Counted from the stretch's first letter, positions 2,328-63,422 are shown. The stretch is 64,000 nt of DNA from Nitrospinaceae bacterium (GCA_029261575.1 JAJDBD010000088.1:13524-77523); one strand, 5' to 3'. Numbers and translations: made by a program. Notes: generated from the sequence alone by a model not told the origin.

Positions 2328-3518
2328 ATGGCAAAAGAAAAATTCGTTCGCGATAAACCGCATTTGAATGTTGGAACTATCGGGCACGTGGACCATGGAA
2401 AAACCACCCTCACCGCGGCCATCACGGAAGTTTTAGCTAAAAAGGGGCTCGCCGATTACGTCCCCTTCGACAAAATCGACAAGGCGCCAGAGGAGAGAGA
2501 GCGCGGCATCACCATCGCCATCGCCCATGTTGAATATCAATCCGAGATACGCCATTACGCGCATGTCGACTGCCCCGGTCACGCCGACTACGTTAAAAAC
2601 ATGATCACCGGAGCCGCGCAAATGGACGGCGCCGTTCTGGTTCTGAACGCCGCCGACGGTCCCATGCCTCAAACCCGCGAACACATCCTTTTGGCGCGCC
2701 AGGTAGGCGTTCCCAGAATCGTCGTTTTTCTCAATAAGGTGGATATGGTGGACGACGAGGAGCTTCTCGACCTGGTCGAGCTGGAAGTGCGCGAGTTGTT
2801 GACCGAATATAAATACCCCGGCGACGACATTCCGATCATTCGAGGCAGCGCTCTGCACGCCTTGGAAAATCCGGAAGACGAGGAAAAAACCAAATGTATC
2901 TGGGAGTTGATAAAGGCGCTGGACGAATACGTCCCGATTCCCGAGCGCGCCGTCGACAAACCTTTCCTGATGCCCATCGAGGATATCTTCAGCATCTCCG
3001 GGCGTGGAACGGTAGCTACCGGCAGAATTGAAGCTGGCGTCGTTCATGTCGGCGACGAGGTGGAGATTGTCGGTTTCCGGCCCACCACCAAAACCGTTAT
3101 CACCGGCGTGGAAATGTTCCGCAAATTGCTGGACGACGGGCAGGCGGGCGATAATATCGGAGCGTTGCTCCGCGGCACCAAGCGCGACGATATCGAACGC
3201 GGGCAGGTGCTCGCCAAGCCGGGAAGCATCACTCCGCACACCAAGTTCAAGGCCCAGGTCTATATATTGAAAAAAGAAGAAGGCGGTCGACACACGCCGT
3301 TTTTTAACGGCTACCGTCCGCAGTTTTATTTTCGGACCACGGACGTTACCGGCATTTGTACCCTGAAAGAAGGCGTTGAGATGGTCATGCCTGGGGACAA
3401 TGTGGATATGACGATCGATTTGATCACGCCCGTAGCTATGGACAAGGAACTGCGATTCGCTATTCGCGAAGGCGGCCGTACCGTGGGCGCCGGAGTCGTG
3501 GGCGAGGTTGTTGAATAA
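2328..3518 (+). CDS. tuf: Elongation factor Tu
   Basis: 396 aa with [17 protein letters not shown] and NKVD motifs. Canonical EF-Tu length and position. Confidence 0.98.
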
Positions 3519-3832: not shown

Positions 3833-3990
3833 GCGTCGGCGCCAGGCAAGCGCCTGGAGGCATTAGGCGTAACTTATTTGGGTAACGCTACGGATTCGGC
3901 GACAATTGTATATTTCGGGACGAAGAAAAAGTATTTTATGGATTCGTCTATTTTAAAACTTTTTCGGCGACCTGTTAGCTAGAGAGAACT
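3833..3990 (+). repeat. Structured intergenic repeat, family 2, copy 1 (hairpin CCAGGC-AAGC-GCCTGG at its 5' end)
   Basis: Fills the unusually long rpsJ|rplC gap. It aligns over its whole length with the reverse complement of 63266-63422, including an exact 23-nt block (3840-3862 = revcomp 63399-63421). Confidence 0.75.
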
Positions 3991-5257: not shown

Positions 5258-5544
5258 AAGAACTGCATCGAGTACTGGTCAAACCCCTGCTCACTGAGAA
5301 AAGCAACGATTTGTTGCAGGGAAACAACTCCGTCACCTTTCAGGTGGACAGGCGAGCCAACAAGATAGAGATCAAGGCGGCGGTGGAGAAAATTTTCAAC
5401 GTCTCCGTTGTGGACGTCAATACCCTCAACGTCAAGGGTCGGCGTAAACGGTTCGGTAAAGCCGTCGGCGTTTCCAAAAGCTGGAAAAAAGCGGTGGTTC
5501 AATTGAAAGAGGGCGACAAAATTGAAATATTTGAAGGCGCATAA
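5254..5544 (+). CDS. rplW: 50S ribosomal protein L23
   Basis: 96 aa, L23-like ([10 protein letters not shown]...). 4-nt overlap with rplD. Confidence 0.95.
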
Positions 5545-5549
5545 AAACC

Positions 5550-6377
5550 ATGACCGTTAGAAAACTCAATCCAAGATCCGCGGGCGTTCGGTTCCAGACC
5601 ATTTCAGGGTTTGAGGAACTGACCAAAAAGACTCCGGAAAAAAGTTTGTTGGTCTCCATTTCGCGAAAAGGCGGGCGCAACAACAACGGGCGGATCACCG
5701 CCAAGCGTCGCGGCGGCGGACACCGCAAGCTGTACAGGATGATCGACTTTAAAAGAAACAAGGACGGGATCGAAGCCAAGGTTGCCGGGATCGAATACGA
5801 TCCCAACCGGTCCGCCAACATCGCTTTGCTGGTGTACACCGACGGAGAAAAACGCTACATCCTGGCTCCCAGCGGATTGACGGACGGCGACAAGGTCATG
5901 TCCGGCGAAGGCGCGGAAATTCGTAAGGGCAATTGTCTTCCCCTGAGCGCCATTCCGGAAGGAACGCTGATTCACAATATCGAGATGCGTCCCGGAAAAG
6001 GCGGTCAATTGGCCCGTTGCGCGGGAACCTTCGCCCGGCTCATGGCGAAGGAAGGCAAGATGGCCAACCTGAAGCTGACCTCGGGAGAGGTTCGCCTGAT
6101 CGACGTAAACTGCCGGGCCACGATCGGGACCGTGGGCAACTCGGAGCATGAAAATATTACCATCGGTAAAGCCGGCAGGAATCGCTGGGTGGGGAAAAGA
6201 CCTCGCGTGCGCGCGGTGGCCATGAATCCCGTGGACCATCCCATGGGCGGCGGAGAAGGTCGCTCCTCTGGAGGACGGCATCCGTGCAGTCCCTGGGGTA
6301 TTCCGGCAAAAGGGTATAAAACGCGGAAGAAGACGAAGCTTTCCAGCAAGTATATTTTAAAGAAACGCAAGAAATGA
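5550..6377 (+). CDS. rplB: 50S ribosomal protein L2
   Basis: 275 aa with L2 motifs ([18 protein letters not shown]). Confidence 0.97.
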
Positions 6378-7847: not shown

Positions 7848-8267
7848 ATGTTGATGCCCAAAAAAACCAAATACCGAAAGCGCCAGAAAGGCAAAAGGCG
7901 CGGGACCGCTTATCGGGGCGGCGAGTTGAGCTTCGGTACCGTCGGTTTGCAGGCTACGGGCAGAGGTTGGATCACCAACCGTCAGATCGAAGCCGCCCGA
8001 ATCGCCATGACCCGGCACGTCAAGCGCGGCGGTAAAATCTGGCTGAGAATTTTTCCCGACAAGCCGATCACCAAGAAGCCCGCGGAAACCCGGATGGGCA
8101 AGGGTAAGGGAAGTCCGGAATACTGGGTGGCCGTGATCAAGCCGGGTCGGATTTTGTATGAAATGGAAGGGGTCTCCCTGCCAGTGGCCCGGGAGGCGTT
8201 GAGGCTTGCCTCGCACAAACTGCCCCTCGCCACGCGTCTGGTGGTCAAGGAAGGCGCCAACATTTAA
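7848..8267 (+). CDS. rplP: 50S ribosomal protein L16
   Basis: 139 aa, [12 protein letters not shown]-terminus. Preceded by an atypically long 92-nt gap after rpsC. Confidence 0.96.
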
Positions 8268-8534: not shown

Positions 8535-8816
8535 TTGGAGTCTCAGAGCGAAAACAAAAAAACGATGACCGGCGACGTCGTCAGCGACAAGATGGATAAG
8601 ACCGTGGTCGTCTGCGTCGAGCGCAAATATAATCATCCTAAGTTTAAAAAAGTTGTGCGCCGGAGCAAGAGGTACAAGGTACACGACGAGAAGAACGAGT
8701 GCCGGACGGGAGATTTTATCTCCATTTGCGAGACGCGCCCCCTCAGTAAGGACAAGCGCTGGCGGCTTCGGGAAATCATAACCAGGGCCGCGCCGGCGTC
8801 GGCGGAAAGCGCATAG
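8535..8816 (+). CDS. rpsQ: 30S ribosomal protein S17
   Basis: 93 aa with the [14 protein letters not shown] motif. TTG start at 8535 (alternative ATG at 8565). Confidence 0.93.
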
Positions 8817-8825
8817 GGGAAAAAG

Positions 8826-9194
8826 ATGATCCAGTTAAGAACGACGATGGAAGTTGCGGACAACTCCGGCGCTAAACGAGTGCAATGCATAAAAGTTTTG
8901 GGAGGCAGTCGCAGGCGTTACGCCAGGGTGGGCGACCTGATTGTCGTCTCCGTCCGCGAGGCCGAGCCGAACACCGCCATTAAAAAAGGCGAAGTGAAAA
9001 AAGCCGTTGTCGTTCGTACGCGAAAAGAAGTCAGGCGGGCCGACGGCAGTTATATCAAATTCGACAGCAACGCCGCCGTGTTGATCAACGACGCCAAGGA
9101 ACCTTTGGGCACCCGCATATTCGGTCCCGTGGCCCGCGAGTTGCGCGCCAAGAAATTCATGAAAATCCTGTCCCTGGCCCCGGAGGTGCTTTGA
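8826..9194 (+). CDS. rplN: 50S ribosomal protein L14
   Basis: 122 aa, [18 protein letters not shown]-terminus. Confidence 0.97.
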
Positions 9195-11299: not shown

Positions 11300-11665
11300 A
11301 TGTCCGTCAACGTTCGCCGCGAATTGAGATTGAAAAGAAAAAAACGCGTGAAACTCCAGGTCCAAAAGGACACGGGGAAGTGCCGGCTCACGGTATTCAA
11401 AACCGCCAAGCATATTTACGCCCAGATTGTGGACGACCGCGAGCGCAAGACATTGGCGTCCGAGTCCACCGTGTCTCCGAAATTCAAGGAGAGCAAGCAG
11501 AGTGGAGGCAATCTAAAAGCCGCCGCCTGGGTGGGCGAGTCTTTGGGAGCCAAAGCCGCAGACCAAGGAATCAAGGAAGTGTATTGCGACCGGAACGGGT
11601 TCCGCTACACCGGACGCATCAAAGCCCTGGCCGACGCGGTTCGGGAAAAGGGAGTGAAGTTTTAA
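11300..11665 (+). CDS. rplR: 50S ribosomal protein L18
   Basis: 121 aa, L18-like (RLTVFKTAKHIYAQIVDD...). Follows rplF. Confidence 0.95.
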   Translation: MSVNVRRELRLKRKKRVKLQVQKDTGKCRLTVFKTAKHIYAQIVDDRERKTLASESTVSPKFKESKQSGGNLKAAAWVGESLGAKAADQGIKEVYCDRNGFRYTGRIKALADAVREKGVKF

Positions 11666-11666
11666 A

Positions 11667-11762
11667 AGGGTCTCTAATAATTGTAAGTTTTTGCTTTCGG
11701 CAACGCCCCGTCCCTTATTTATAAGGGACGCTCGCGGCCATGATTAATTTTTAGAGGCGCAC
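11667..11762 (+). repeat. Palindromic ~95-nt MITE/REP-like element, family 1, copy A
   Basis: Lies in the rplR|rpsE gap. Terminal inverted repeats CCTCTAATAATT / AATTTTTAGAGG and a central stem-loop GTCCCTTAT-TT-ATAAGGGAC. An exact 32-nt block (11729-11760) equals the reverse complement of 16697-16728. Confidence 0.85.
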
Positions 11763-11839
11763 TCAAGCGGGAATCAAGCTCCGACGATTTGAGAAAAAAG
11801 ATTGTCGGGAGTTGGAGTTCCATAACAGCGAGGTAGACT

Positions 11840-12343
11840 TTGCAAGAAGCCGTGGATTCAAAAAAAGAAGAAATCGTCGACAAAGTCGTCAATATCCGTC
11901 GGGTGGCCAAAGTGGTCAAGGGCGGGCGGCGATTCAGCTTCAGTATTTTAATTGTAGTCGGCAACAAGGACGGCCGCGTGGGTTGGGGTCTGGGTAAAGC
12001 CACTCAGGTGCCAGAAGCCATTCGCAAAGGCGTGGAGAAAGCCAAGAAGAACATGGTCTCGGTCAGTCTGGCCTCCGGCACCATTCCCCATGAAGCGTTG
12101 GGCTGTTACGGGGCAGGCAGAGTGTTGCTGAAACCCGCGTCCCGGGGAACCGGCCTGATCGCCGGCGGGGCTGTGCGCGCCGTATTGGAAGCCGTGGGCG
12201 TACGCGACATCCTCACGAAATGTTTGCGCTCCAACAATCCTCACAATGCCGTCAAAGCCACCATCGCCGGATTACAGTCTTTGAGAGACGCCGGTCAAAT
12301 TGAAAAATTACGGGGTCAACCCGTCGCCGCCAAAACCGCGTAA
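11840..12343 (+). CDS. rpsE: 30S ribosomal protein S5
   Basis: 167 aa, TTG start preceded by [23 protein letters not shown] motif. Confidence 0.95.
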
Positions 12344-12349
12344 GGGACC

Positions 12350-12796
12350 ATGCTGACATTATCGAATCTAAAACCCTATCCGGGAACGAAAAAAAATCGC
12401 AAACGAGTGGGCCGTGGCATCGGCTCTGGAACCGGCAAGACCTGCGGCAAAGGCCAAAAAGGTCAAAAGTCCCGTTCTGGAGGCAAGCCGCATCCCTGGT
12501 TCGAAGGCGGGCAAATGCCCCTGCAACGACGCCTTCCCAAAAGGGGATTCACTAATATTTTCAAAAAGATATTTGAAGTGGTCAACCTTTCCAGGATCGA
12601 TGGAGTCGAAGGAATCGAAGGAGAAGCGACCCTCGAGGTTTTGAAGGAGAAGGGATTGATCAAAAAAACTAAAGCTGTGAAAATACTTGGCAACGGAGAA
12701 ATTTCCAGAGCGCTCACCATTCACGCTCATCATTTCAGCCAGTCCGCCAAGGAGAAAATCGAAAAAGCCGGAGGGAAAGCGATTCTTATTAAATGA
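12350..12796 (+). CDS. rplO: 50S ribosomal protein L15
   Basis: 148 aa, [21 protein letters not shown] motif. Starts 6 nt after rpsE, so no L30 gene lies in between. Confidence 0.96.
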
Positions 12797-14109
12797 GCGG
12801 CGCAGAGAATATAGGAAACATATTCAAGGTTCCCGAACTGAAGAGGCGCGTCCTCTTTACATTGGGGATTTTGGCCGTCTACAGGCTTGGGGCGCATATC
12901 CCCACCCCTGGGATCGACAGCGCGGCGTTGGTGGAGATATTCGCCAGAGTTCAGAGTACCATTCTCGGATTCTTCGACATGTTTTCCGGGGGCGCCCTGA
13001 GTCGACTCACGATATTTGCGTTGGGCATCATGCCCTACATCAGCGCCTCCATCATCCTGCAGTTGCTGACGATTGTTTCCCCGTATCTGGCGCGGCTTAA
13101 AAAAGAAGGCGAACAGGGACAAAAGAAAATCACCCAGTACACCCGGTACGGAACCATCCTGGTGAGTATTATCCAGAGTTCCGGGATCTCCATGGGGCTG
13201 GAAGCCATGAAAAGTCCCAGCGGGCAAGCCGTGGTGATGGAGCCGGGGTGGTCCTTCCGGTTGATGACCATTCTCACGCTGACCGCCGGAACCGCTTTCA
13301 TCATGTGGCTGGGCGAACAAATTACCGAACGGGGAATCGGCAACGGAATCTCCCTCATCATTTTCGCGGGGATCGTGGCCGGCACCCCCGCCGCGATATT
13401 TCAATCCCTGGACCTGATGGGGACGGGAGAATTACAGCCGCTGGTCATGCTGGTGATCACGGTGATGATGGCCTTCGTGGTCGGCGCCATTGTGTTTTCC
13501 GAGGGAGGGCAACGCAGGATACCCATACAATACGCCAAGCGCGTGGTGGGACGAAAAATGATGGGCGGCCAGAGTTCGCATTTGCCGCTAAAAGTCAATA
13601 CCGCGGGCGTCATCCCGCCTATATTTGCCTCGTCCATCATCATGTTTCCGGCCACCATTGCCCAGTTTATAACGCACCCCTGGATGCAAAACATTTCGGC
13701 GGCGCTGACGCCGGGAAACGTGATTTACAGTTTAATATTCATTGGGGCGATCTTTTTCTTTTGCTATTTTTATACGGCGGTCATATTCAACCCCGTCGAC
13801 GTGGCCGACAATATGAAGAAACACGGCGGTTACGTTCCGGGAATTCGACCGGGCGCTAAAACCGCGGAATATATCGACCAAGTGTTGTCGCGGATCACGT
13901 TTTTTGGAGCAGGCTATCTTTCGTTGATCTGTATTTTGCCCGATTATTTGATAAAATACTTCAACATTCCCTTTTATTTCGGTGGCACCAGCCTGCTCAT
14001 TGTCGTGGGCGTTTCACTGGACACCATGCAGCAGATAGAATCCCATCTGGTGATGAGAAACTACGATGGGTTTGTCAAGAAGGGGAGGTTGAGAGGCAGA
14101 AGAGGCTGA
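12793..14109 (+). CDS. secY: Preprotein translocase subunit SecY
   Basis: 438 aa multi-TM protein. ATGA overlap with rplO, conserved spc-operon position, SecY-like sequence ([24 protein letters not shown]). Confidence 0.96.
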
Positions 14110-14753
14110 TGAGGTTGATACTTTTGGGACCTCCCGGAGCGGGAAAAGGCACCCAAGCCAAACTGTTGATGAAGAAATACAATATCCCCCAGATATCGAC
14201 CGGGGATATTTTAAGAAGAGCCGTTCAGGACGATAACGATTTGGGTCGCAAGGCCAAAACGTCCATGGACGCCGGAAGCCTGGTTCCGGACGAAACCGTC
14301 ATCGGCCTGATCCGGGAAAGAATCCGGGAAGCCGATTGCGCAAGAGGATTTATTCTGGACGGGTTTCCGCGCACCGAGGTGCAGGCAGAAAAGCTCGATG
14401 AGATGTTGCGGGAGCTGGAGCTGACTATCGACGCGGTGTTGGATTTTAGCGTGGACGCCGAAGAGTTGGTGTTGCGCCTTACGGGGCGGCGCACTTGCAG
14501 GGAATGTGGAGCGATGTTCCACGTCGACGGTCGGCCCCCGAAACGGTCCGGCGTATGCGATCATTGCGACGGCGCGCTTTACCAGAGGCCCGACGACAAC
14601 CAGGCCACCATCACCAAACGGATGGAAGTCTACGAAAAGGAAACAGCGCCGTTGAAAAAATATTATAGCCAACAGGGAAACCTCAAAACGCTGGAAGGAG
14701 CAGGAGACACGGAACAGATATTTTCCCGGGTTTGCCAGCTCGTTTCCTCCTGA
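14109..14753 (+). CDS. adk: Adenylate kinase (zinc-finger lid type)
   Basis: 214 aa, P-loop GPPGAGKGTQ, lid CRECG...CDHCDG. Start overlaps the secY stop. Confidence 0.96.
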   Translation: MRLILLGPPGAGKGTQAKLLMKKYNIPQISTGDILRRAVQDDNDLGRKAKTSMDAGSLVPDETVIGLIRERIREADCARGFILDGFPRTEVQAEKLDEMLRELELTIDAVLDFSVDAEELVLRLTGRRTCRECGAMFHVDGRPPKRSGVCDHCDGALYQRPDDNQATITKRMEVYEKETAPLKKYYSQQGNLKTLEGAGDTEQIFSRVCQLVSS

Positions 14754-14847
14754 GGGGCGATTCCAAAGAGCGCTTTTGGCCAAGAGCGGCCTGGGTGAAG
14801 AGTTGCCGAGGCGCGGCAGAGAAAAAATCGAATTACTAGAGGTTCCC
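14754..14847 (-). repeat. Family 1 element, diverged copy D (same orientation as copy B)
   Basis: Fills the adk|infA gap. Shares GGGCG...TTGGCC..GAGCGGCC...AGTTGCC...AATTAcTAGAGGTTCCC with copy B (16695-16792). More degenerate than copies A and B. Confidence 0.55.
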
Positions 14848-14857
14848 TGATAAAATT

Positions 14858-15076
14858 ATGTCAAAAGAAGAGTCCATAGAAGTTGAAGGAACAGTCGTCG
14901 AACCTTTGCCCAACGCAATGTTTCGGGTAGAGCTTGATAACGGTCATAAAATCCTGGCGCACATCTCAGGAAAAATGCGTCTTCATTTCATCAGGATTTT
15001 GTCCGGAGACAAGGTGAAAGTGCAACTCTCCCCCTACGATTTGAGCCGGGGGCGAATCACCTACCGTTACAAATAA
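14858..15076 (+). CDS. infA: Translation initiation factor IF-1
   Basis: 72 aa with the [25 protein letters not shown] motif. Confidence 0.97.
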
Positions 15077-15091
15077 GAGAAAGGAAACGTC

Positions 15092-15205
15092 ATGAAAGTC
15101 CGGGCCTCCGTAAAGCCCATTTGCAATAAATGCAAGCTGATCCGCCGGAAAGGCGTAGTGCGTGTACTCTGCGTCAATCCCAAACACAAACAGCGGCAAG
15201 GTTGA
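15092..15205 (+). CDS. rpmJ: 50S ribosomal protein L36
   Basis: Not in the ORF track because it is too short. Hand translation gives [37 protein letters not shown]-stop, preceded by GAGAAAGGA. Canonical L36 sequence and position. Confidence 0.93.
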
Positions 15206-15246
15206 ACCGTTTAAAGAACCGAATTTGATTTTATAAGGAGCGTAAG

Positions 15247-15609
15247 GTGGCCAGGATTGCAGGCATCGATATACCCAGCGAAAAACGAACGATCATAGGG
15301 TTGACGTATGTTTTCGGGATTGGAAGATCCCTCTCCGCCGATATTTTGAAAAAAGCGGGGATTGCGGAAACTATTCGGGTCAAGGACCTGACCGAGGAAG
15401 AAGTCAACAAAATCCGGGGGATCATCGAAAAAGATTACGAAGTCGAAGGCGACCTGCGACGGTCGGTGAACATGAACATCAAACGTCTGATGGACGTCGG
15501 CAGTTATCGCGGACTGCGCCATCGCCGGGGAATGCCGGTGCGAGGACAGCGAAGCCATACCAATGCCCGAACCCGCAAAGGCCCAAGAAAAACGGCCGGC
15601 GCCAAATAA
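15247..15609 (+). CDS. rpsM: 30S ribosomal protein S13
   Basis: 120 aa, GTG start, [11 protein letters not shown]-terminus. Confidence 0.96.
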
Positions 15610-15638
15610 GAACAACCTTTCAGGTCAGGAAACTTTAA

Positions 15639-16037
15639 ATGGCACAGGAAAAAGCTAAACCCGTAAAAACAGGCAAGAAGAAAAAGGTCGTTCCGGAGAA
15701 TGGGATCGCCCATATCCGCGCAACCTTCAACAACACCATCGTGTCGATTTCCGACGCTTCGGGGAACGTGGTGGCCTGGTCCAGCGCGGGCGCCCAGGGG
15801 TTCAAGGGATCGCGCAAAAGCACGCCCTTCGCCGCCCAGGTGGCCGCGGAAAAGGCCGCCCAAAAAGCCCGGGACATGGGCATGAGAAAACTGGAAGTCC
15901 ATATCAAGGGTCCCGGTTCCGGAAGGGAATCCGCCGTGCGGTCGCTTCAGGCCGTCGGCATGGAAATCACGGTGATTCGAGACAAGACCCCCATACCCCA
16001 TAACGGATGCCGGCCCCGAAAACGCCGACGCGTGTGA
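15639..16037 (+). CDS. rpsK: 30S ribosomal protein S11
   Basis: 132 aa, [17 protein letters not shown] motif. Confidence 0.96.
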
Positions 16038-16067
16038 CCCAATTCATCTTATTTAGGAGATTCAGTT

Positions 16068-16694
16068 TTGGCGAGATATAGAGATTCTCTTTGCAGACTT
16101 TGCCGACGCGAAGGCATCAAGCTTTTTTTGAAAGCCGAACGATGCCTGACCGTCAAATGCGCCATTGAAAAGCGCGCTTATCCCCCCGGCCAACACGGTC
16201 AGGGTCGGCCCAAGTTCTCTGAATACGGCGTGCAGTTGAGAGAGAAACAAAAAGTCCGCAGGATTTACGGCGTTCTGGAGAAGCAATTCAGGAAATATTT
16301 CAAGATCGCCGACCGGAAAAAAGGCGTGACCGGCGAAAACCTGTTGCAACTGCTGGAGATGCGTTTCGACAACGTGGTGTATCGTCTCGGGCTTGCCGGT
16401 TCGCGCAACGCCGCACGGCAACTCGTTCGGCACAACCATTTCTACGTCAACGGCAGGCGGGTGAACATCCCTTCGTACATGGTCAAAAAGGGAGACGTGA
16501 TCGCCCCCGCGCCGAATAAGGCCGAAAAGTTTCCCATCAAAACAGCCCTGGAAGGCATGAGAGGAAAATCTCTGCCCCAATGGCTGGCGTTTGACGAAGA
16601 CAACAAACAAGGGTTGATCCAGTCTCTCCCCAGCCGGGAAGACGTGACCCTGCCCATTCAGGAACAACTCATCGTGGAGTTGTACTCAAGATAA
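16068..16694 (+). CDS. rpsD: 30S ribosomal protein S4
   Basis: 208 aa, TTG start, [17 protein letters not shown]-terminus. Confidence 0.96.
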
Positions 16695-16792
16695 GGGCGC
16701 CTCTAAAAATTAATCATGGCCGCGAGCGGCCCTTATGAAATAAGGGCTGGCGAGTTGCCAAAAGCGAAAGTATCCAATTATTAGAGGTTCCC
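16695..16792 (-). repeat. Family 1 element, copy B (inverted relative to copy A)
   Basis: Starts immediately after the rpsD stop. Its reverse complement aligns with copy A along the full length, including 32 identical nt. Ends GGGCGCCTCTAAAAATT ... AATTATTAGAGGTTCCC. Followed by a GTTCCC...GGGAAC hairpin at 16786-16815. Confidence 0.85.
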
Positions 16793-16866
16793 ATAAGAAA
16801 TCCCCCGGAGGGAACGCCCTGCGGTAACTTTATAAATGATATTTGAAAAATCAGGCGGAGGCCTTT

Positions 16867-17895
16867 ATGTTCTCGGCGCATGGAATAGTAAAAGCTAAAC
16901 GGTTGGAGTTCGATAAAAAAACCAAAACGGACGCTTACGGCAGGTTCGTTTCCGGACCCTTTGAACGCGGTTACGGAGTGACGGTGGGCAATTCGTTGCG
17001 GCGTATCCTGTTGTCTTCCATCGAAGGCGCGGCCGTGATCGGAGTCCGGTTTGAAGGCGTTTTTCATGAATTTTCCTCCCTGCCCGGAGTGATGGAAGAC
17101 GTTACCGAAATCATCCTCAATCTCAAGCAACTGAGCATCAGAAGTCGGGGGAACGGAGATTCTTCGCTCCGGCGCATCACCCTGAAAGCCCAAAAACCGG
17201 GAAGAGTCACCGCCCGGGATATTGAATCCGACGGGGGAGACGTCGAACTGTTAGACCCCGATCAGCACATCGCCACCCTCGACGAAAACGGCGAACTGGA
17301 CATGGAGATGCTGGTCCAGGTCGGGAGAGGTTACCTCCCTGCCGAGCGGCACGACCTTTCCAACGAATCGGTTCACATGATTCCCGTGGACGCCATTTTC
17401 TCCCCGGTGGAAAAAGTCAGCTACCATGTGGAAAAAACCCGCGTCGGGCAATCCACCGATTACGACTCCCTGATCATGGAGATCTGGACCAACGGCAGCA
17501 TCACCCCGGACGACGCGGTGGCCCACGCGGCCAAGATCGTCAAAGACCACATGCAGTTGTTCATCAACTTCGACGAAGAACCCGAACCGCAACAGCCCCA
17601 GGTCGACGAGAAGAAACAAAAAGTACTGACCTATTTGTCCAAAAGCGTGGAAGAGCTGGAACTTTCGGTTCGCTCCTACAACTGCTTGAAAAACGCCAAC
17701 ATTCAAACCATCTCCGAACTGGTGCAAAAGAACGACCAGGAAATGCTGAAAACCCGCAACTTCGGCAGGAAATCCCTGAACGAAATTAAGGATATTCTGG
17801 AGGAGATGGGATTGGGCCTGGGCACGAAACTGGACGGCGACGACCTGAAGCAACTCAACTCGCTTAGAAAAAAGAAGGAAGTAGAAAACCCGTAG
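16867..17895 (+). CDS. rpoA: DNA-directed RNA polymerase subunit alpha
   Basis: [11 protein letters not shown] motif and a C-terminal domain ([22 protein letters not shown]). I prefer the ATG at 16867, preceded by GGCGGAGG, over the TTG at 16843 given in the ORF track. Confidence 0.95.
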
Positions 17896-17927
17896 ATAAC
17901 GGATTCGCGCTAACAACCCATTTAAGG

Positions 17928-18024
17928 ACGCTTCTGGTAATTCAAAATTTTTTCGTTTGGCAACTCGCTTGGCCTTTATTTTAATAGCCAAGCTCGCGGC
18001 CTCGGACAATTTTTAGAGGTTCCC
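17928..18024 (+). repeat. Family 1 element, copy C (same orientation as copy A, degenerate 5' end)
   Basis: Lies in the rpoA|rplQ gap. TTTGGCAACTCGC...GCTCGCGGCC...CAATTTTTAGAGGTTCCC matches copy A and the reverse complement of copy B. The central stem is replaced by GGCCTTTATTTTAATAGCC. Confidence 0.65.
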
Positions 18025-18052
18025 TTAATTTAATAGAGAAGGTAATGATCCC

Positions 18053-18598
18053 ATGCGGCATTTAAAAGCGGGCAACAGAAAATTCGGCCGTAGCCCGGCC
18101 CATCGAAAAGCCATGTTCCGCAACATGGTCACCGCGCTGGTGCGCCAGGAAAGAGTCCGCACGACTCTCGCCAAGGCCAAGGAGTTGCGCGGCAAAGTGG
18201 AGAAAGTCATCACCTTGGGTAAAAAGGGAACCCTGCACGCCCGCCGGACCGCCCGCAGGCATGTGGCGGAAAGAGAAACCCTGCTCAAGGTTTTTGGACC
18301 GCTGTCCGAACGCTACGCCGATCGTCCCGGCGGGTACACCCGCGTCATCAAAATAGGCAATCGCCCCGGCGACGACGCGCCCATGGCGTTCATCGAACTG
18401 GTCGACCGCGAAGAAGAGGCGGCGCAGGCCGAGGATAAGAAAAGCAAAAAAGCCGCGGGAAAGAAAACCGAAAAGAAAGCCGAAGGTAAATCCAAAAAGC
18501 CGGAAGAGAAAAAAGCCAAAGAAAAAACGCCCAAAGATAAAAAAGAAAAACCCGCCGCCAAAAAAGAAAGCAAAAAAGACGACGCGGAGAAAAAGTAA
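18053..18598 (+). CDS. rplQ: 50S ribosomal protein L17 with a Lys-rich C-terminal extension
   Basis: 181 aa, N-terminus [21 protein letters not shown]. The last ~62 aa are K/E/A low complexity. Confidence 0.95.
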
Positions 18599-52547: not shown

Positions 52548-52681
52548 GTCTTCCAAAAACGGTTTTGGTTTGCCGGAAAGGATCGGGTTTGCGACGAACC
52601 GGAATCCTCCGGCCCGAGTTATTGACCCGCCCGCGCGCCCGTTCCCTCCTCGATTTGCGCGCGCCGCACGACCCTGAAACG

Positions 52682-53458
52682 ATGATCGCTAAACTGATTG
52701 AAATCTGCAAACACCACGAATTGATACGAAGCCTGGTCGGCAAGGATCTGAAAATCCGCTACCACGGCTCCGTCCTCGGCTACCTGTGGTCCCTGCTCAA
52801 TCCCTTTCTGATGATGGTCGTCTTCACCCTGGTATTTTCCATCTTTATGCGCATCAAGATGGAAAACTACGCCCTGTTCCTGATATCCGCGCTCCTGCCC
52901 TGGACCTTTTTTTCCAACAGCCTGCTGGCCGGTTCCCTGTCCATTGTCGGCAACGGCCATTTCCTGCAAAAATTTTACTGTCCCCGGGAGTTGTTTCCCA
53001 TCACCGTGATCCTGTCCAACGCGGTCATTCTTCTGCTCAGTTTCATACCCTTCTTTTTGTTCATGTATTATATGAAAGGCGAATTGGGCTGGAGCCTGTT
53101 GGCCCTGCCGCTGGTGGTCGGCATTCATCTGCTGTTCACCCTGGGCCTCGCGTTCGCATTGTCCAGCCTTTACGTTTATTTTCGCGACGTGAAGCATTTG
53201 CTGGAATTTGTCATGATGGTCTGGTTTTACGTCACCCCCATTATTTATCCCACCTCCATGATTCCGGAGAAATACCGGATCCTGCTGACCCTGAACCCCG
53301 CCGTCCCCATCATCGGACTTTATCGCGATGTGTTTTACGATTTATCCTTTCCCAGCCTGGCGGACCTGTCGATCGCCGGAGGCATGGCGCTGGCGGTTCT
53401 GTTCGCGGGGTGGACGATTTTCCGTTCCCTGGAACAGAATTTTGTGAAGGAACTTTAA
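52682..53458 (+). CDS. wzm: ABC-2 type polysaccharide export permease (Wzm/TagG-like)
   Basis: 258 aa from MIAKLIEICKHHELIRSLVGKDLKIRYHGSVLGYLWS (typical ABC-2 N-terminus) with six TM segments. The ORF-track start at 52565 is rejected because it adds an Arg/Pro-rich leader. Confidence 0.8.
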   Translation: MIAKLIEICKHHELIRSLVGKDLKIRYHGSVLGYLWSLLNPFLMMVVFTLVFSIFMRIKMENYALFLISALLPWTFFSNSLLAGSLSIVGNGHFLQKFYCPRELFPITVILSNAVILLLSFIPFFLFMYYMKGELGWSLLALPLVVGIHLLFTLGLAFALSSLYVYFRDVKHLLEFVMMVWFYVTPIIYPTSMIPEKYRILLTLNPAVPIIGLYRDVFYDLSFPSLADLSIAGGMALAVLFAGWTIFRSLEQNFVKEL

Positions 53459-63265: not shown

Positions 63266-63422
63266 CGATTGAAAAGTTACCCTCAACTCGGATTCGAACT
63301 TTTCGAAATTTCCCTATTGCATTTGATATTCAATAGCGCCGAAGCCGGTCGCGTTTCCCATACAAGTTACGCCATCTGCCCCCGGGGGCTTCCCCGGTTG
63401 CCTCCAGGCGCTTGCCTGGCGG
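63266..63422 (-). repeat. Structured intergenic repeat, family 2, copy 2 (inverted)
   Basis: Its reverse complement aligns with 3833-3990 (exact 23-nt block plus GGCGTAACTT..TGGG.AACGC..CGG.TTCGGCG). It carries an extra CCGGGG-AAGC-CCCCGG hairpin. On the minus strand it begins right after the GGDEF-PilZ stop. Confidence 0.75.

Follow-up and report, generated by a model that had tools for sequence, protein, structure and literature searches.

MITEs can be co-transcribed within operons, where they are cut by RNase III or alter mRNA stability, as in the Correia and ERIC families (PMC10969869, PMC2229807). Correia elements (NEMIS) of Neisseria are MITEs with long terminal inverted repeats (TIRs) and a size of about 100-155 bp; they occur in both orientations, are often co-transcribed in operons and form long hairpins, for which RNase III cleavage at the inverted repeats has been demonstrated (PMC10969869, PMC2229807). 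ERIC elements (IRUs) of Enterobacteriaceae are imperfect palindromes of about 127 bp, transcribed, intergenic, present in both orientations and often situated just 3′ of ORFs, and they have an orientation-dependent effect on the stability of adjacent mRNA segments (PMC2229807). The RUP element of Streptococcus pneumoniae, a MITE of 107 bp, carries inverted repeats, leaves a target-site duplication (TSD) and is dispersed between genes; an IS transposase is believed to move it in trans (PMC2229807, PMC3049150). Geobacter uraniireducens has a MITE, Chunjie, that is described as AT-rich with a stable hairpin (PMC10969869, PMC3184786).

Here, we describe a ~98-nt element, present in four copies within a 64-kb window (the whole stretch of DNA analysed) from an uncultured Nitrospinota bacterium, that resembles these families in build and setting but differs from each of them. 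Correia elements belong to another phylum and duplicate a TA dinucleotide rather than the AT-rich tetramer found here; they carry 24-26 bp inverted repeats, an IHF site and promoters, whereas no such motif was found in our element by a scan confined to sigma-70 promoters. ERIC has 7 bp inverted repeats and TA termini, is restricted to enterobacteria and has an experimentally shown functional effect, whereas any such effect of the present element is putative. RUP targets TA and has a candidate parent, IS630-Spn1; here the TSD is 4 bp, and no parent was found in the window or the fetched loci. Chunjie is described as 178-235 bp long, its inverted repeats measuring 21 bp and its direct repeats 9 bp. 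Membership in Correia, ERIC or RUP was rejected on the 4 bp TSD, which is not TA; reviews describe these families as confined to other phyla (PMC2229807). REP and BIME sequences are also small intergenic palindromes inside operons, but REPs measure 20-40 nt, lack TIRs and TSDs and are tied to RAYT transposases. Such palindromes can serve as mRNA stabilisers; REPs leave no duplication, and IS200/IS605 elements insert beside one fixed target, again without duplication.

We propose that the four copies are probably insertions of a previously undescribed Nitrospinota MITE family, carried as co-transcribed passengers in the spc/alpha operons. The MITE reading rests on the TSDs, the TIRs, the dispersed copies in other genomes and the empty or decayed orthologous sites, which together support an earlier suggestion of a non-autonomous mobile element that tolerates operon junctions. 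A limited literature search found no paper describing MITEs in Nitrospinota, a group of marine nitrite oxidisers mostly known from MAGs.

Element copies at four ribosomal gene junctions

The host gene string, rplR-rpsE-rplO-secY-adk-infA-rpmJ-rpsM-rpsK-rpsD-rpoA-rplQ, runs co-directionally on the + strand from 11300 to 18598; its ORFs come from the window and its gene names from synteny and the Pfam labels of orthologous loci. We name the copies by position (the 'copy B' of the preliminary description is our copy C). Copy A, between rplR and rpsE, spans 11662-11766 (body 11666-11762) on the + strand, the family-consensus orientation, with TSDs TTAA (11662-11665) and TCAA (11763-11766) that match at 3 of 4 positions; the rplR stop TAA (11663-11665) lies inside the left TSD, and the central hairpin at 11709-11730. 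Between adk and infA, the diverged copy B occupies 14751-14851 (body 14755-14847) on the - strand; its TSDs, TGAG (14751-14754) and TGAT (14848-14851), also agree at three of four positions, the left one containing the adk stop TGA (14751-14753). The best-preserved window copy, C, lies on the - strand between rpsD and rpoA at 16691-16796 (body 16695-16792), flanked by ATAA at 16691-16694 and 16793-16796, with the rpsD stop TAA (16692-16694) inside the left TSD and a central hairpin at 16729-16747. Copy D, on the + strand between rpoA and rplQ at 17922-18028 (body 17926-18024), is flanked by TTAA at 17922-17925 and 18025-18028; it begins 27 nt past the rpoA stop and ends 25 nt short of the rplQ ATG at 18053, and the stem of its central hairpin (17967-17993) differs in sequence, reading GCTTGGC/GCCAAGC.

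Copies A, C and D are strong copies of one element, and B is diverged but still significant. A profile built from A, the reverse complement of C, and D and searched against the 64-kb window recovers these three at E 1e-30 to 1e-34, by construction, and matches B at E 8e-5; no fifth copy was found in the window. A family profile that excludes B (3 window copies and 14 from other genomes) matches B over positions 3-95 at E 1.2e-5. Self-BLAST aligns A with the reverse complement of C at 86% identity across 93 nt (E 5e-23), and the 32-nt exact block that had been reported between them is present at 11729-11760 and 16697-16728. The formal comparison thus upholds the preliminary description in its claims of four copies of one element and of both orientations (A and D +, B and C -). 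Because an independent Logan assembly, L001 (99.8% identical), carries copy B too, this copy is not an assembly artefact.

The element is non-coding, lacks a transposase gene and is short enough for a MITE (under about 500 bp): bodies measure 93-99 nt, and two variants in another MAG reach 129-131 nt including TSDs. Its ends are imperfect TIRs of ~17 nt (GGGnnCCTCTAAwAATT ... AATTwTTAGAGGnnCCC). In 16 of 17 copies the arms are complementary at 10-14 of the 17 terminal positions, and in copy B, where one TIR has decayed, at 7; pairing reaches 83.6% in the true register, compared with 35-54% in slid-partner controls. Internally, a conserved GGCAACTCGC box is followed by a hairpin of variable sequence and then by a GCTCGCGGCC box. 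The anatomy reported earlier stands for the TIRs and the GGCAAC box, and its central stem-loop for A, C and D but not for B, which has lost it. Sixteen of 17 copies retain the central hairpin, and at least 6 different stem sequences occur among them; formal covariation on the sequence alignment was not significant against shuffles. As RNA, three of the copies (A, C and D) form hairpins of ~100 nt, with folding energies of -29 to -40 kcal/mol and z of -2.5 to -4.3, and copy B folds no better than chance (z about 0).

Target duplications, dispersed copies and orthologous sites

Of 17 full copies, 15 are bounded on both sides by perfect direct repeats of 4 bp; window copies A and B match at 3 of 4 positions. 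Eight of the 15 perfect TSDs are non-palindromic (TTAT, TTTA, TAAA, TAAT) and are repeated directly, not invertedly; a longer, ATAT-flanked copy is one more directly duplicated case. The chance probability of the observed set is about 2e-10. The targets are AT-rich and variable (TTAA, TTAT, TTTA, TAAA, TAAT, ATAT, ATAA and TGAT), with TTAA the commonest. In three of the four window copies (A, B and C), the duplicated tetramer contains the stop codon of the upstream ORF, which is therefore left intact.

About 16 further copies were found in three other Nitrospinota MAGs in unrelated intergenic contexts: OFTM7 has at least 10, spread over 6 contigs, while JAYOZP01 has 3 and CAYFMN01 has 2, each on 2 contigs. 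In all, the family recurs in four other assemblies. A truncated copy is present in the close relative L034 (88.6% DNA identity). Copies outside the window neighbour CBS, LMF1, MlaA, FG-GAP, NUDIX, ATP-grasp, aldo-keto reductase, M23 peptidase, AIR synthase and chlorite dismutase genes, in co-directional, convergent and divergent settings, and no ribosomal-protein operon sequence was found around the other-MAG copies in the fetched loci of about 8 kb each. A second copy lies within 8 kb in 4 of 12 fetched loci, in contexts that are all different. Neither the window nor the fetched loci contained a transposase or a full-length IS with matching ends. An IstB-like ORF, without an IstA partner, adjoins one copy in L013.

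The four junctions measure 174 (rplR-rpsE), 104 (adk-infA), 172 (rpsD-rpoA) and 157 nt (rpoA-rplQ) in the window, compared with 27-71, 0-9, 66-100 and 24-55 nt, respectively, in relatives. The exceptions are L014, with 161 nt at rplR-rpsE and 166 nt at rpsD-rpoA, and L034, with 120 nt at rpsD-rpoA, where a truncated copy C resides. Subtracting the element and one TSD from the window junction gives the length seen in relatives, in agreement with the original proposal that the extra length is the element. Seven relatives (RpoA 71-80% identical), L014 included, gave no family match at these junctions. Other small insertions are present in the same operons of L014 and of L034.

The L034 sites give relative ages. 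Copies B and D are missing there from clean sites, that of D being a single TTAA; adk and infA lie 0-9 nt apart in L034 and all other relatives. The L034 orthologue of copy C has the same TSD and orientation and a 50-nt internal deletion that removes the left inverted repeat and the central hairpin, and only about 14 nt, from the left TIR, survive of copy A. From these states, A and C predate the split from L034, D appears younger, given its empty L034 site, and B is either a younger insertion or was precisely lost in L034. Copies A and C nevertheless retain perfect central stems of 8-10 bp.

Insertion, tolerance and competing explanations

A transposase acting in trans would make a 4-nt staggered cut at AT-rich tetramers, most commonly TTAA, and so leave the 4-bp TSD; we infer the mobilisation in trans because no transposase or matching full-length IS was found, and the staggered cut because of the duplications. 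Tolerance by the host would then have three parts: a target tetramer that often overlaps the stop codon, so that duplication rebuilds the stop (rplR, adk and rpsD); an element carrying no terminator signal; and a downstream ribosome-binding site left untouched or, at adk-infA, possibly replaced by the GAGG of the TIR. With the stop regenerated, no terminator and the ribosome-binding site kept or replaced, the copies would be co-transcribed passengers.

No terminator-like site and, in a sigma-70 consensus scan, no promoter was found on the + strand of the four elements; an intrinsic terminator or attenuator was rejected because a G+C-rich stem with a U-tract is absent from all four on that strand. 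Rfam, the recommended check for a known RNA family, gave no match across the 64-kb window at gathering thresholds and none inside the elements when 11500-18200 was searched with E up to 1. The latter search produced a single match, a sub-threshold Alpha_RBS at 15207-15279, outside the elements. A curated cis-regulatory RNA or ribosomal-protein leader was rejected given this lack of an Rfam match and of conservation at the orthologous junctions in the seven relatives, and given the partial deletion in L034. The inverted-repeat end reads TTAGAGG and holds a Shine-Dalgarno-like GAGG, which stands 7-9 nt 5′ of the start codon in two copies elsewhere and, in the intact TIR of copy B (14839-14842), 15 nt 5′ of the infA ATG at 14858. 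The anatomy thus lends some support, as a putative basis, to the idea that the element end affects translation initiation.

Pure passive insertion does not explain the clustering in the operon. All four window copies fall within 11.0-18.1 kb, a stretch holding 53 of the 699 intergenic AT-only tetramers of the window, which under random choice of such sites has a probability of about 3e-5 in a post-hoc test covering 64 kb only. This makes targeted insertion, in which junctions of very highly transcribed operons, for example just past stop codons, are favoured by the transposase or by the condition of the target DNA, a possible if unlikely explanation; the clustering would in that case stem from how the element transposes. 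The insertion times differ (A and C before the L034 split, D apparently after), three of the four insertions are exactly at a stop codon, and the small insertions in L014 and L034 fit the same picture; however, the copies in other MAGs adjoin ordinary genes in loci devoid of ribosomal-protein operon sequence, their pairing within 8 kb fits local hopping or high copy number equally, the enrichment was computed after the fact on a single window, and very short junctions offer few AT-rich tetramers, stop codons being among them.

Conservation at rpsD-rpoA bears on the idea that the copies, or at least this one, are domesticated cis-acting RNA: a processing site, stabiliser, partial terminator or internal promoter that would uncouple expression of rpsE-secY-adk, infA, rpoA and rplQ. 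Of the long junctions compared between the window and L034 it is the best conserved, with 9 substitutions in 120 positions, where other junctions differ at about 18% and four-fold sites at 28%. Its element-derived surviving half is equally conserved, differing at 3 of 49 sites (P 0.016 against the other junctions, P 1.3e-4 against four-fold sites); this low divergence hints at constraint. That A and C still fold well after predating the L034 split, that the hairpin persists while central stems vary between subfamilies, and that the half retained by L034 contains, on the + strand of copy C, a weak TTGCCA-N18-TATTAG noted by eye and not flagged by the promoter scan, point the same way. We nevertheless regard domestication as improbable, and the stoichiometry-setting role suggested in the preliminary description as neither needed nor favoured. 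Most relatives lack the element at these junctions; in L034 the structure is destroyed, C having lost its left inverted repeat and hairpin and A almost its whole length; copy B shows no significant folding; the copies lie in both orientations and, in other genomes, also in convergent and divergent intergenic regions; and both a terminator signal and an Rfam family are lacking. There is no sign so far that the cell needs the element. As passengers of the MITE family, three of the copies would form imperfect RNA hairpins of ~100 nt in either orientation, which could be RNase III or exonuclease-barrier sites by analogy with Correia and ERIC elements.

A composite account earns little credence: an element inserting scarlessly between translationally coupled genes, favoured at insertion or in retention in the most highly transcribed operons, rebuilding the upstream stop, supplying the downstream gene with a Shine-Dalgarno sequence through ends reading ...UUAGAGGnnCCC, and co-opted at least at rpsD-rpoA. 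Were it true, a processing site or internal promoter at that junction would set rpoA-rplQ apart from the upstream ribosomal proteins, and transposons would have rewired ribosomal operon stoichiometry. A REP/RAYT-type palindrome or IS200/IS605-derived palindromic element (PATE), in place of a TIR-bearing, target-duplicating (DDE) transposon, is highly implausible: the element is palindromic, intergenic and found in both orientations, but it is about 98 nt and not 20-40 nt, and its flanking tetramer varies between copies and is duplicated on both sides. These variable 4-bp direct duplications and the inverted-repeat ends contradict both identities, so that of the label 'MITE/REP-like' given at the outset the first half stands, with TIRs, TSDs and dispersed copies, and the second falls. 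Chance similarity of AT-rich low-complexity spacers, to which AT-rich arms alone lend any colour, is refuted by profile E-values (A, C and D between 1e-22 and 1e-34, B 1e-5), by the BLAST match of A to C and by recurrence in the four other assemblies.

Consequences for Nitrospinota genomes

The element is a new family of an ordinary kind of bacterial repeat, and a real, tidy case. It provides a natural example of a transposon entering highly compact, constrained operons harmlessly, through an AT-rich tetramer that contains the stop codon and restores it. The filled, truncated and empty states in L034 yield relative copy ages and reveal host deletions removing copies. In practical terms, the element lengthens junctions usually assumed to be short, and where repeats of this sort fall in marker-gene regions, MAG assembly and gene calling can be broken or misled. 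Should the clustering, or the conservation seen in the rpsD-rpoA copy, turn out to be functional, the family would let the co-option of a MITE in ribosomal gene expression be put to the test.

Four copies of one element in the spc/alpha operons

The gene string rplR-rpsE-rplO-secY-adk-infA-rpmJ-rpsM-rpsK-rpsD-rpoA-rplQ occupies the + strand (sequence 11500–18200 and ORF list), with gene names assigned from synteny and the Pfam labels of orthologous loci. Four of its junctions are long (174, 104, 172 and 157 nt) and, as the preliminary description had claimed, each holds a real copy of one ~98-nt element: A between rplR and rpsE (11662–11766), B between adk and infA (14751–14851), C between rpsD and rpoA (16691–16796) and D between rpoA and rplQ (17922–18028), all spans including the flanking duplications described below. 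A and D lie in the + orientation, B and C in the −. A repeat search of the window linked C to A (inverted, 57 nt, 86%) and to D, and self-BLAST aligned A with C over 93 nt at 86% identity (E 5e-23). A profile made from A, the reverse complement of C, and D recovered those three plus B (E 8e-5, 64 kb searched) and no further copies in the 64-kb window; a family profile made without B matched it over positions 3–95 (E 1.2e-5). By these profile E-values and self-BLAST, all four copies are significantly alike. The 32-nt exact block shared by A and C, the terminal inverted repeats, the central stem-loop and the GGCAAC box reported previously were all confirmed in the sequence. B is also present in an independent Logan assembly, on a 1.8-kb contig located through Adk that is 99.8% identical.

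The window holds other repeats. A second small family, unrelated to the element, has copies at 3836–3915 (+) and 63326–63421 (−) that are identical over a 23-nt block, CGCCAGGCAAGCGCCTGGAGGCA (hairpin CCAGGC-aagc-GCCTGG), and ~77% identical over ~73 nt more. The first fills the 158-nt rpsJ|rplC junction directly past the rpsJ stop, the second sits between convergent ORFs, and the hairpin block turns up again downstream of rplQ in L034, the ribosomal operon of a close relative (11766–11786). A 32-nt near-perfect palindrome at 52835–52866 (94% self-complementary by self-BLAST) lies within a predicted + strand ORF (52565–53458).

A MITE inserted repeatedly at AT-rich tetramers

When the copies are aligned together with their flanks, the tetramers bordering the GGG...CCC ends agree left and right, perfectly in 15 of 17 full copies. 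The flanking tetramer is TTAA seven times, a palindrome at which direct and inverted repeats are indistinguishable; among the other full copies are TTAT (twice), TTTA (twice), TAAA (twice), TAAT and, at C, ATAA (+ strand reading), and ATAT flanks a longer variant. Because the non-palindromic tetramers repeat directly and not invertedly (chance probability ~2e-10), they are target-site duplications, and the palindrome does not extend into them. Between the inverted-repeat arms, 10–14 of 17 positions match. Small size, inverted-repeat ends, duplication and dispersal together define a MITE, a miniature inverted-repeat transposable element, inserted repeatedly at AT-rich tetramers. The earlier reading as a non-autonomous mobile element is thus borne out by the duplications, the inverted-repeat ends, the dispersed copies and the empty and filled sites in relatives, and the variable duplicated target contradicts the REP reading and also places the element outside the IS200/IS605 type. 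Its mode of working resembles that of Correia, ERIC, RUP and Chunjie elements, from which it differs, as families compared by description, in its 4-bp rather than TA or 9-bp duplication and in its host phylum; on these two grounds we do not assign it to any of them. A limited literature search found no report on MITEs in Nitrospina.

Scanning one genome per species for an exact pattern located 12 further loci in three Nitrospinota metagenome-assembled genomes (MAGs), JAJDBF01 'OFTM7', JAYOZP01 and CAYFMN01, and returned zero matches beyond them; a profile search of the 12 loci gave ~16 full copies plus fragments. None of the 12 is syntenic with the ribosomal operon. The adjoining genes are mutually unrelated (CBS, LMF1, MlaA, FG-GAP, NUDIX, ATP-grasp, aldo-keto reductase, M23 peptidase, AIR synthase and chlorite dismutase) and are arranged co-directionally, convergently and divergently, and a second copy lies less than 8 kb away in 4 of the 12. 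Longer variants of 129–131 nt including the 4-nt duplications (L006 5280–5408; L013 5834–5964) carry an extra segment of ~25 nt (…GTTGGCAGTGCGCCAGCAC…) 3′ of the central hairpin, and L003 5963–6013 is a fragment of this form. The single strict-pattern match in a metagenome scan (L017) sits in GC-rich coding DNA and was set aside as chance, as were seven matches to the two internal boxes among viral contigs, all in DNA of 63–69% GC and without a family match. No transposase for the MITE was identified in the window or in the loci around the copies; an IS21 parent was considered for the IstB-like ORF beside the L013 copy and rejected, this ORF lacking an IstA partner and sitting among flagellar, GNAT and GGDEF genes.

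Filled, empty and decayed sites in relatives

No family match was found at the four junctions in seven relatives with RpoA 71–80% identical (loci L014, L015, L016, L018, L021 and L022, and the RIFCS-clade loci L031–L033). The relatives' junctions measure 44–71, 0–9, 66–100 and 24–52 nt at the A, B, C and D sites, and the window junctions less the element and one duplication fall within these ranges, slightly above at rpoA|rplQ. The exceptions are two long junctions in L014 (GCA_016206985.1, RpoA 80%), rplR|rpsE at 161 nt (3143–3303) and rpsD|rpoA at 166 nt (8085–8250), neither of which matches the MITE family significantly (global alignment z ~2; one inverted-repeat arm alone matches, at 6 bits). 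The rpsD|rpoA insert, which begins 1 nt past the stop codon, carries ends resembling inverted repeats (GGGCCCCTTT...AGAGGCGCCC) and has a folding energy of −41.6 kcal/mol. Since the junctions of the sister RIFCS clade are short, the L014 insert is an event of its own; a related element may have struck there independently.

L034 (JAJDBB010000084.1, GCA_029261555.1), located through the RpoA cluster, is much closer, with 88.6% DNA identity across the operon and 28% divergence at four-fold sites. Here, ~14 nt of the left inverted repeat of A survive, followed by a 147-nt deletion. C is retained, its site, orientation and ATAA/ATAA duplication all as in the window, and a 50-nt deletion between two TAAGGGC direct repeats has removed the central hairpin and one of the inverted repeats. 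B is missing, the adk-infA gap being 4 nt, and D is missing, its empty site a single TTAA. From these states, the insertions of A and C predate the split from L034, D looks younger than the split, and B is younger or was precisely lost; the copies are being worn away by host deletions. L034 also has its own ~85-nt insertion at rpsM|rpsK (8714–8828), flanked by a ~12-nt direct repeat (AGAAyAACmTTT) and unrelated to the MITE family, and a ~80-nt insertion at rpsE|rplO (5483–5727) that resembles a partial duplicate of the rplO start; a truncated rplO gene call makes the latter junction read 245 nt.

All four window copies lie within 11.0–18.1 kb, a stretch holding 53 of the 699 AT-only tetramers of the window (intergenic-plus-stop positions), which gives a random-site probability of ~3e-5 in a post hoc test covering 64 kb. 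Passive insertion does not account for this clustering. The insertions have more than one date, and the clustering, these staggered times and the second copies in the MAG loci leave local hopping, a high copy number and insertion targeted to transcribed DNA as possible causes.

Proposed accommodation in transcripts and possible RNA roles

Three of the four copies in the window have the upstream stop codon inside the left duplication (rplR TAA in TTAA at A, adk TGA in TGAG at B and rpsD TAA in ATAA at C), as does one truncated OFTM7 copy; because duplication regenerates the tetramer, the upstream ORF stays intact. Whichever way it is oriented, the element has TTAGAGGnnCCC at its 3′ end, with a Shine–Dalgarno-like GAGG. 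An ATP-grasp ORF starts directly after the right duplication in L007 (3283–3391), and an M23 peptidase ORF has its ATG overlapping the right duplication in L010 (2345–2449), placing the GAGG 9 and 7 nt upstream of the ATG, respectively; the L007 start is backed by a Pfam domain beginning at residue 7. On this spacing, the MITE may supply the ribosome-binding site of both ORFs. The GAGG of B lies 15 nt before infA, and adk and infA are coupled across 0–9 nt in every relative.

Scans for other signals gave no support to a terminator, a sigma-70 promoter or an Rfam family: no terminator-like or sigma-70-like sites were found on the + strand of the elements, against the partial terminator that had been suggested for A–D, and no Rfam match to the elements was returned. 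A match to Alpha_RBS (RF00140) that scores 19.8 bits (E 0.29), short of the gathering threshold of 38, lies elsewhere, at 15207–15279 upstream of rpsM, the expected place of the S4-binding leader of the alpha operon. A sigma-54 promoter (GG-N10-GC) in the GGCAAC box was likewise rejected, as it fits L007, L011 and roughly C and does not fit A, D or the OFTM7 copies. The box of the JAYOZP01 copies (L007, L011) reads GGCAAC-TCGC-TTGC (alignment A2, columns 37–51); its sigma-54-like spacing, which most other copies do not have, is probably coincidental.

As RNA, A, C and D are predicted to form ~100-nt imperfect hairpins (−29 to −40 kcal/mol, z −2.5 to −4.3) on both strands, A and D more weakly on the − strand (z about −1.8 to −1.9); the fold of B is no stronger than that of shuffled sequence. 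All but one of 17 copies keep the central hairpin, whose stem comes in at least six different sequences; it is flanked by conserved boxes GGCAACTCGC and GCTCGCGGCC, of which the second was part of the search pattern, making its invariance partly a matter of construction, and the first was not. Sequence alignment misaligns the central stems, so per-copy folds were used; in the MAFFT alignment, formal covariation was not above shuffles, the palindrome being real against slid controls, and the RNAalifold consensus structure is weak. The covariance-model alignment A3 includes reverse-strand matches of the palindrome and was left out of pair counts.

An alternative is that one or more copies have been domesticated, and here the rpsD|rpoA junction is of interest. 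It is the best conserved of the long junctions between the window and L034, with 9/120 substitutions compared with ~18% at the other junctions and 28% at four-fold sites, and the surviving element-derived half of C has 3/49, a hint of constraint on C. Against an essential RNA role, the element is absent from these junctions in most relatives, its hairpin-forming parts are deleted in L034, B has decayed, the copies are of mixed orientation and the family also occurs in non-operon contexts. We consider domestication of one or more copies improbable. The native leader at this junction (window 16797–16866; L034 9932–10000) is conserved to an unusual degree, with ~8% substitutions, and its small hairpin CCCC-CGGA-GGG(G) adjoins GGGAAC, which is complementary to the GTTCCC end of the element.

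For the MITE reading, we propose that a transposase acting in trans would make a 4-nt staggered cut, and that three things would make insertion within operons tolerable: duplication restores the stop codon, the element brings no terminator, and the next gene either keeps its ribosome-binding site or receives a substitute. Such copies would then be carried in polycistronic mRNA as hairpins. RNase III cleavage and exonuclease blocking by MITE hairpins are documented for Correia and ERIC (PMC10969869, PMC2229807), and by analogy the Nitrospinota copies may act likewise, although we infer all RNA-level effects of the MITE.
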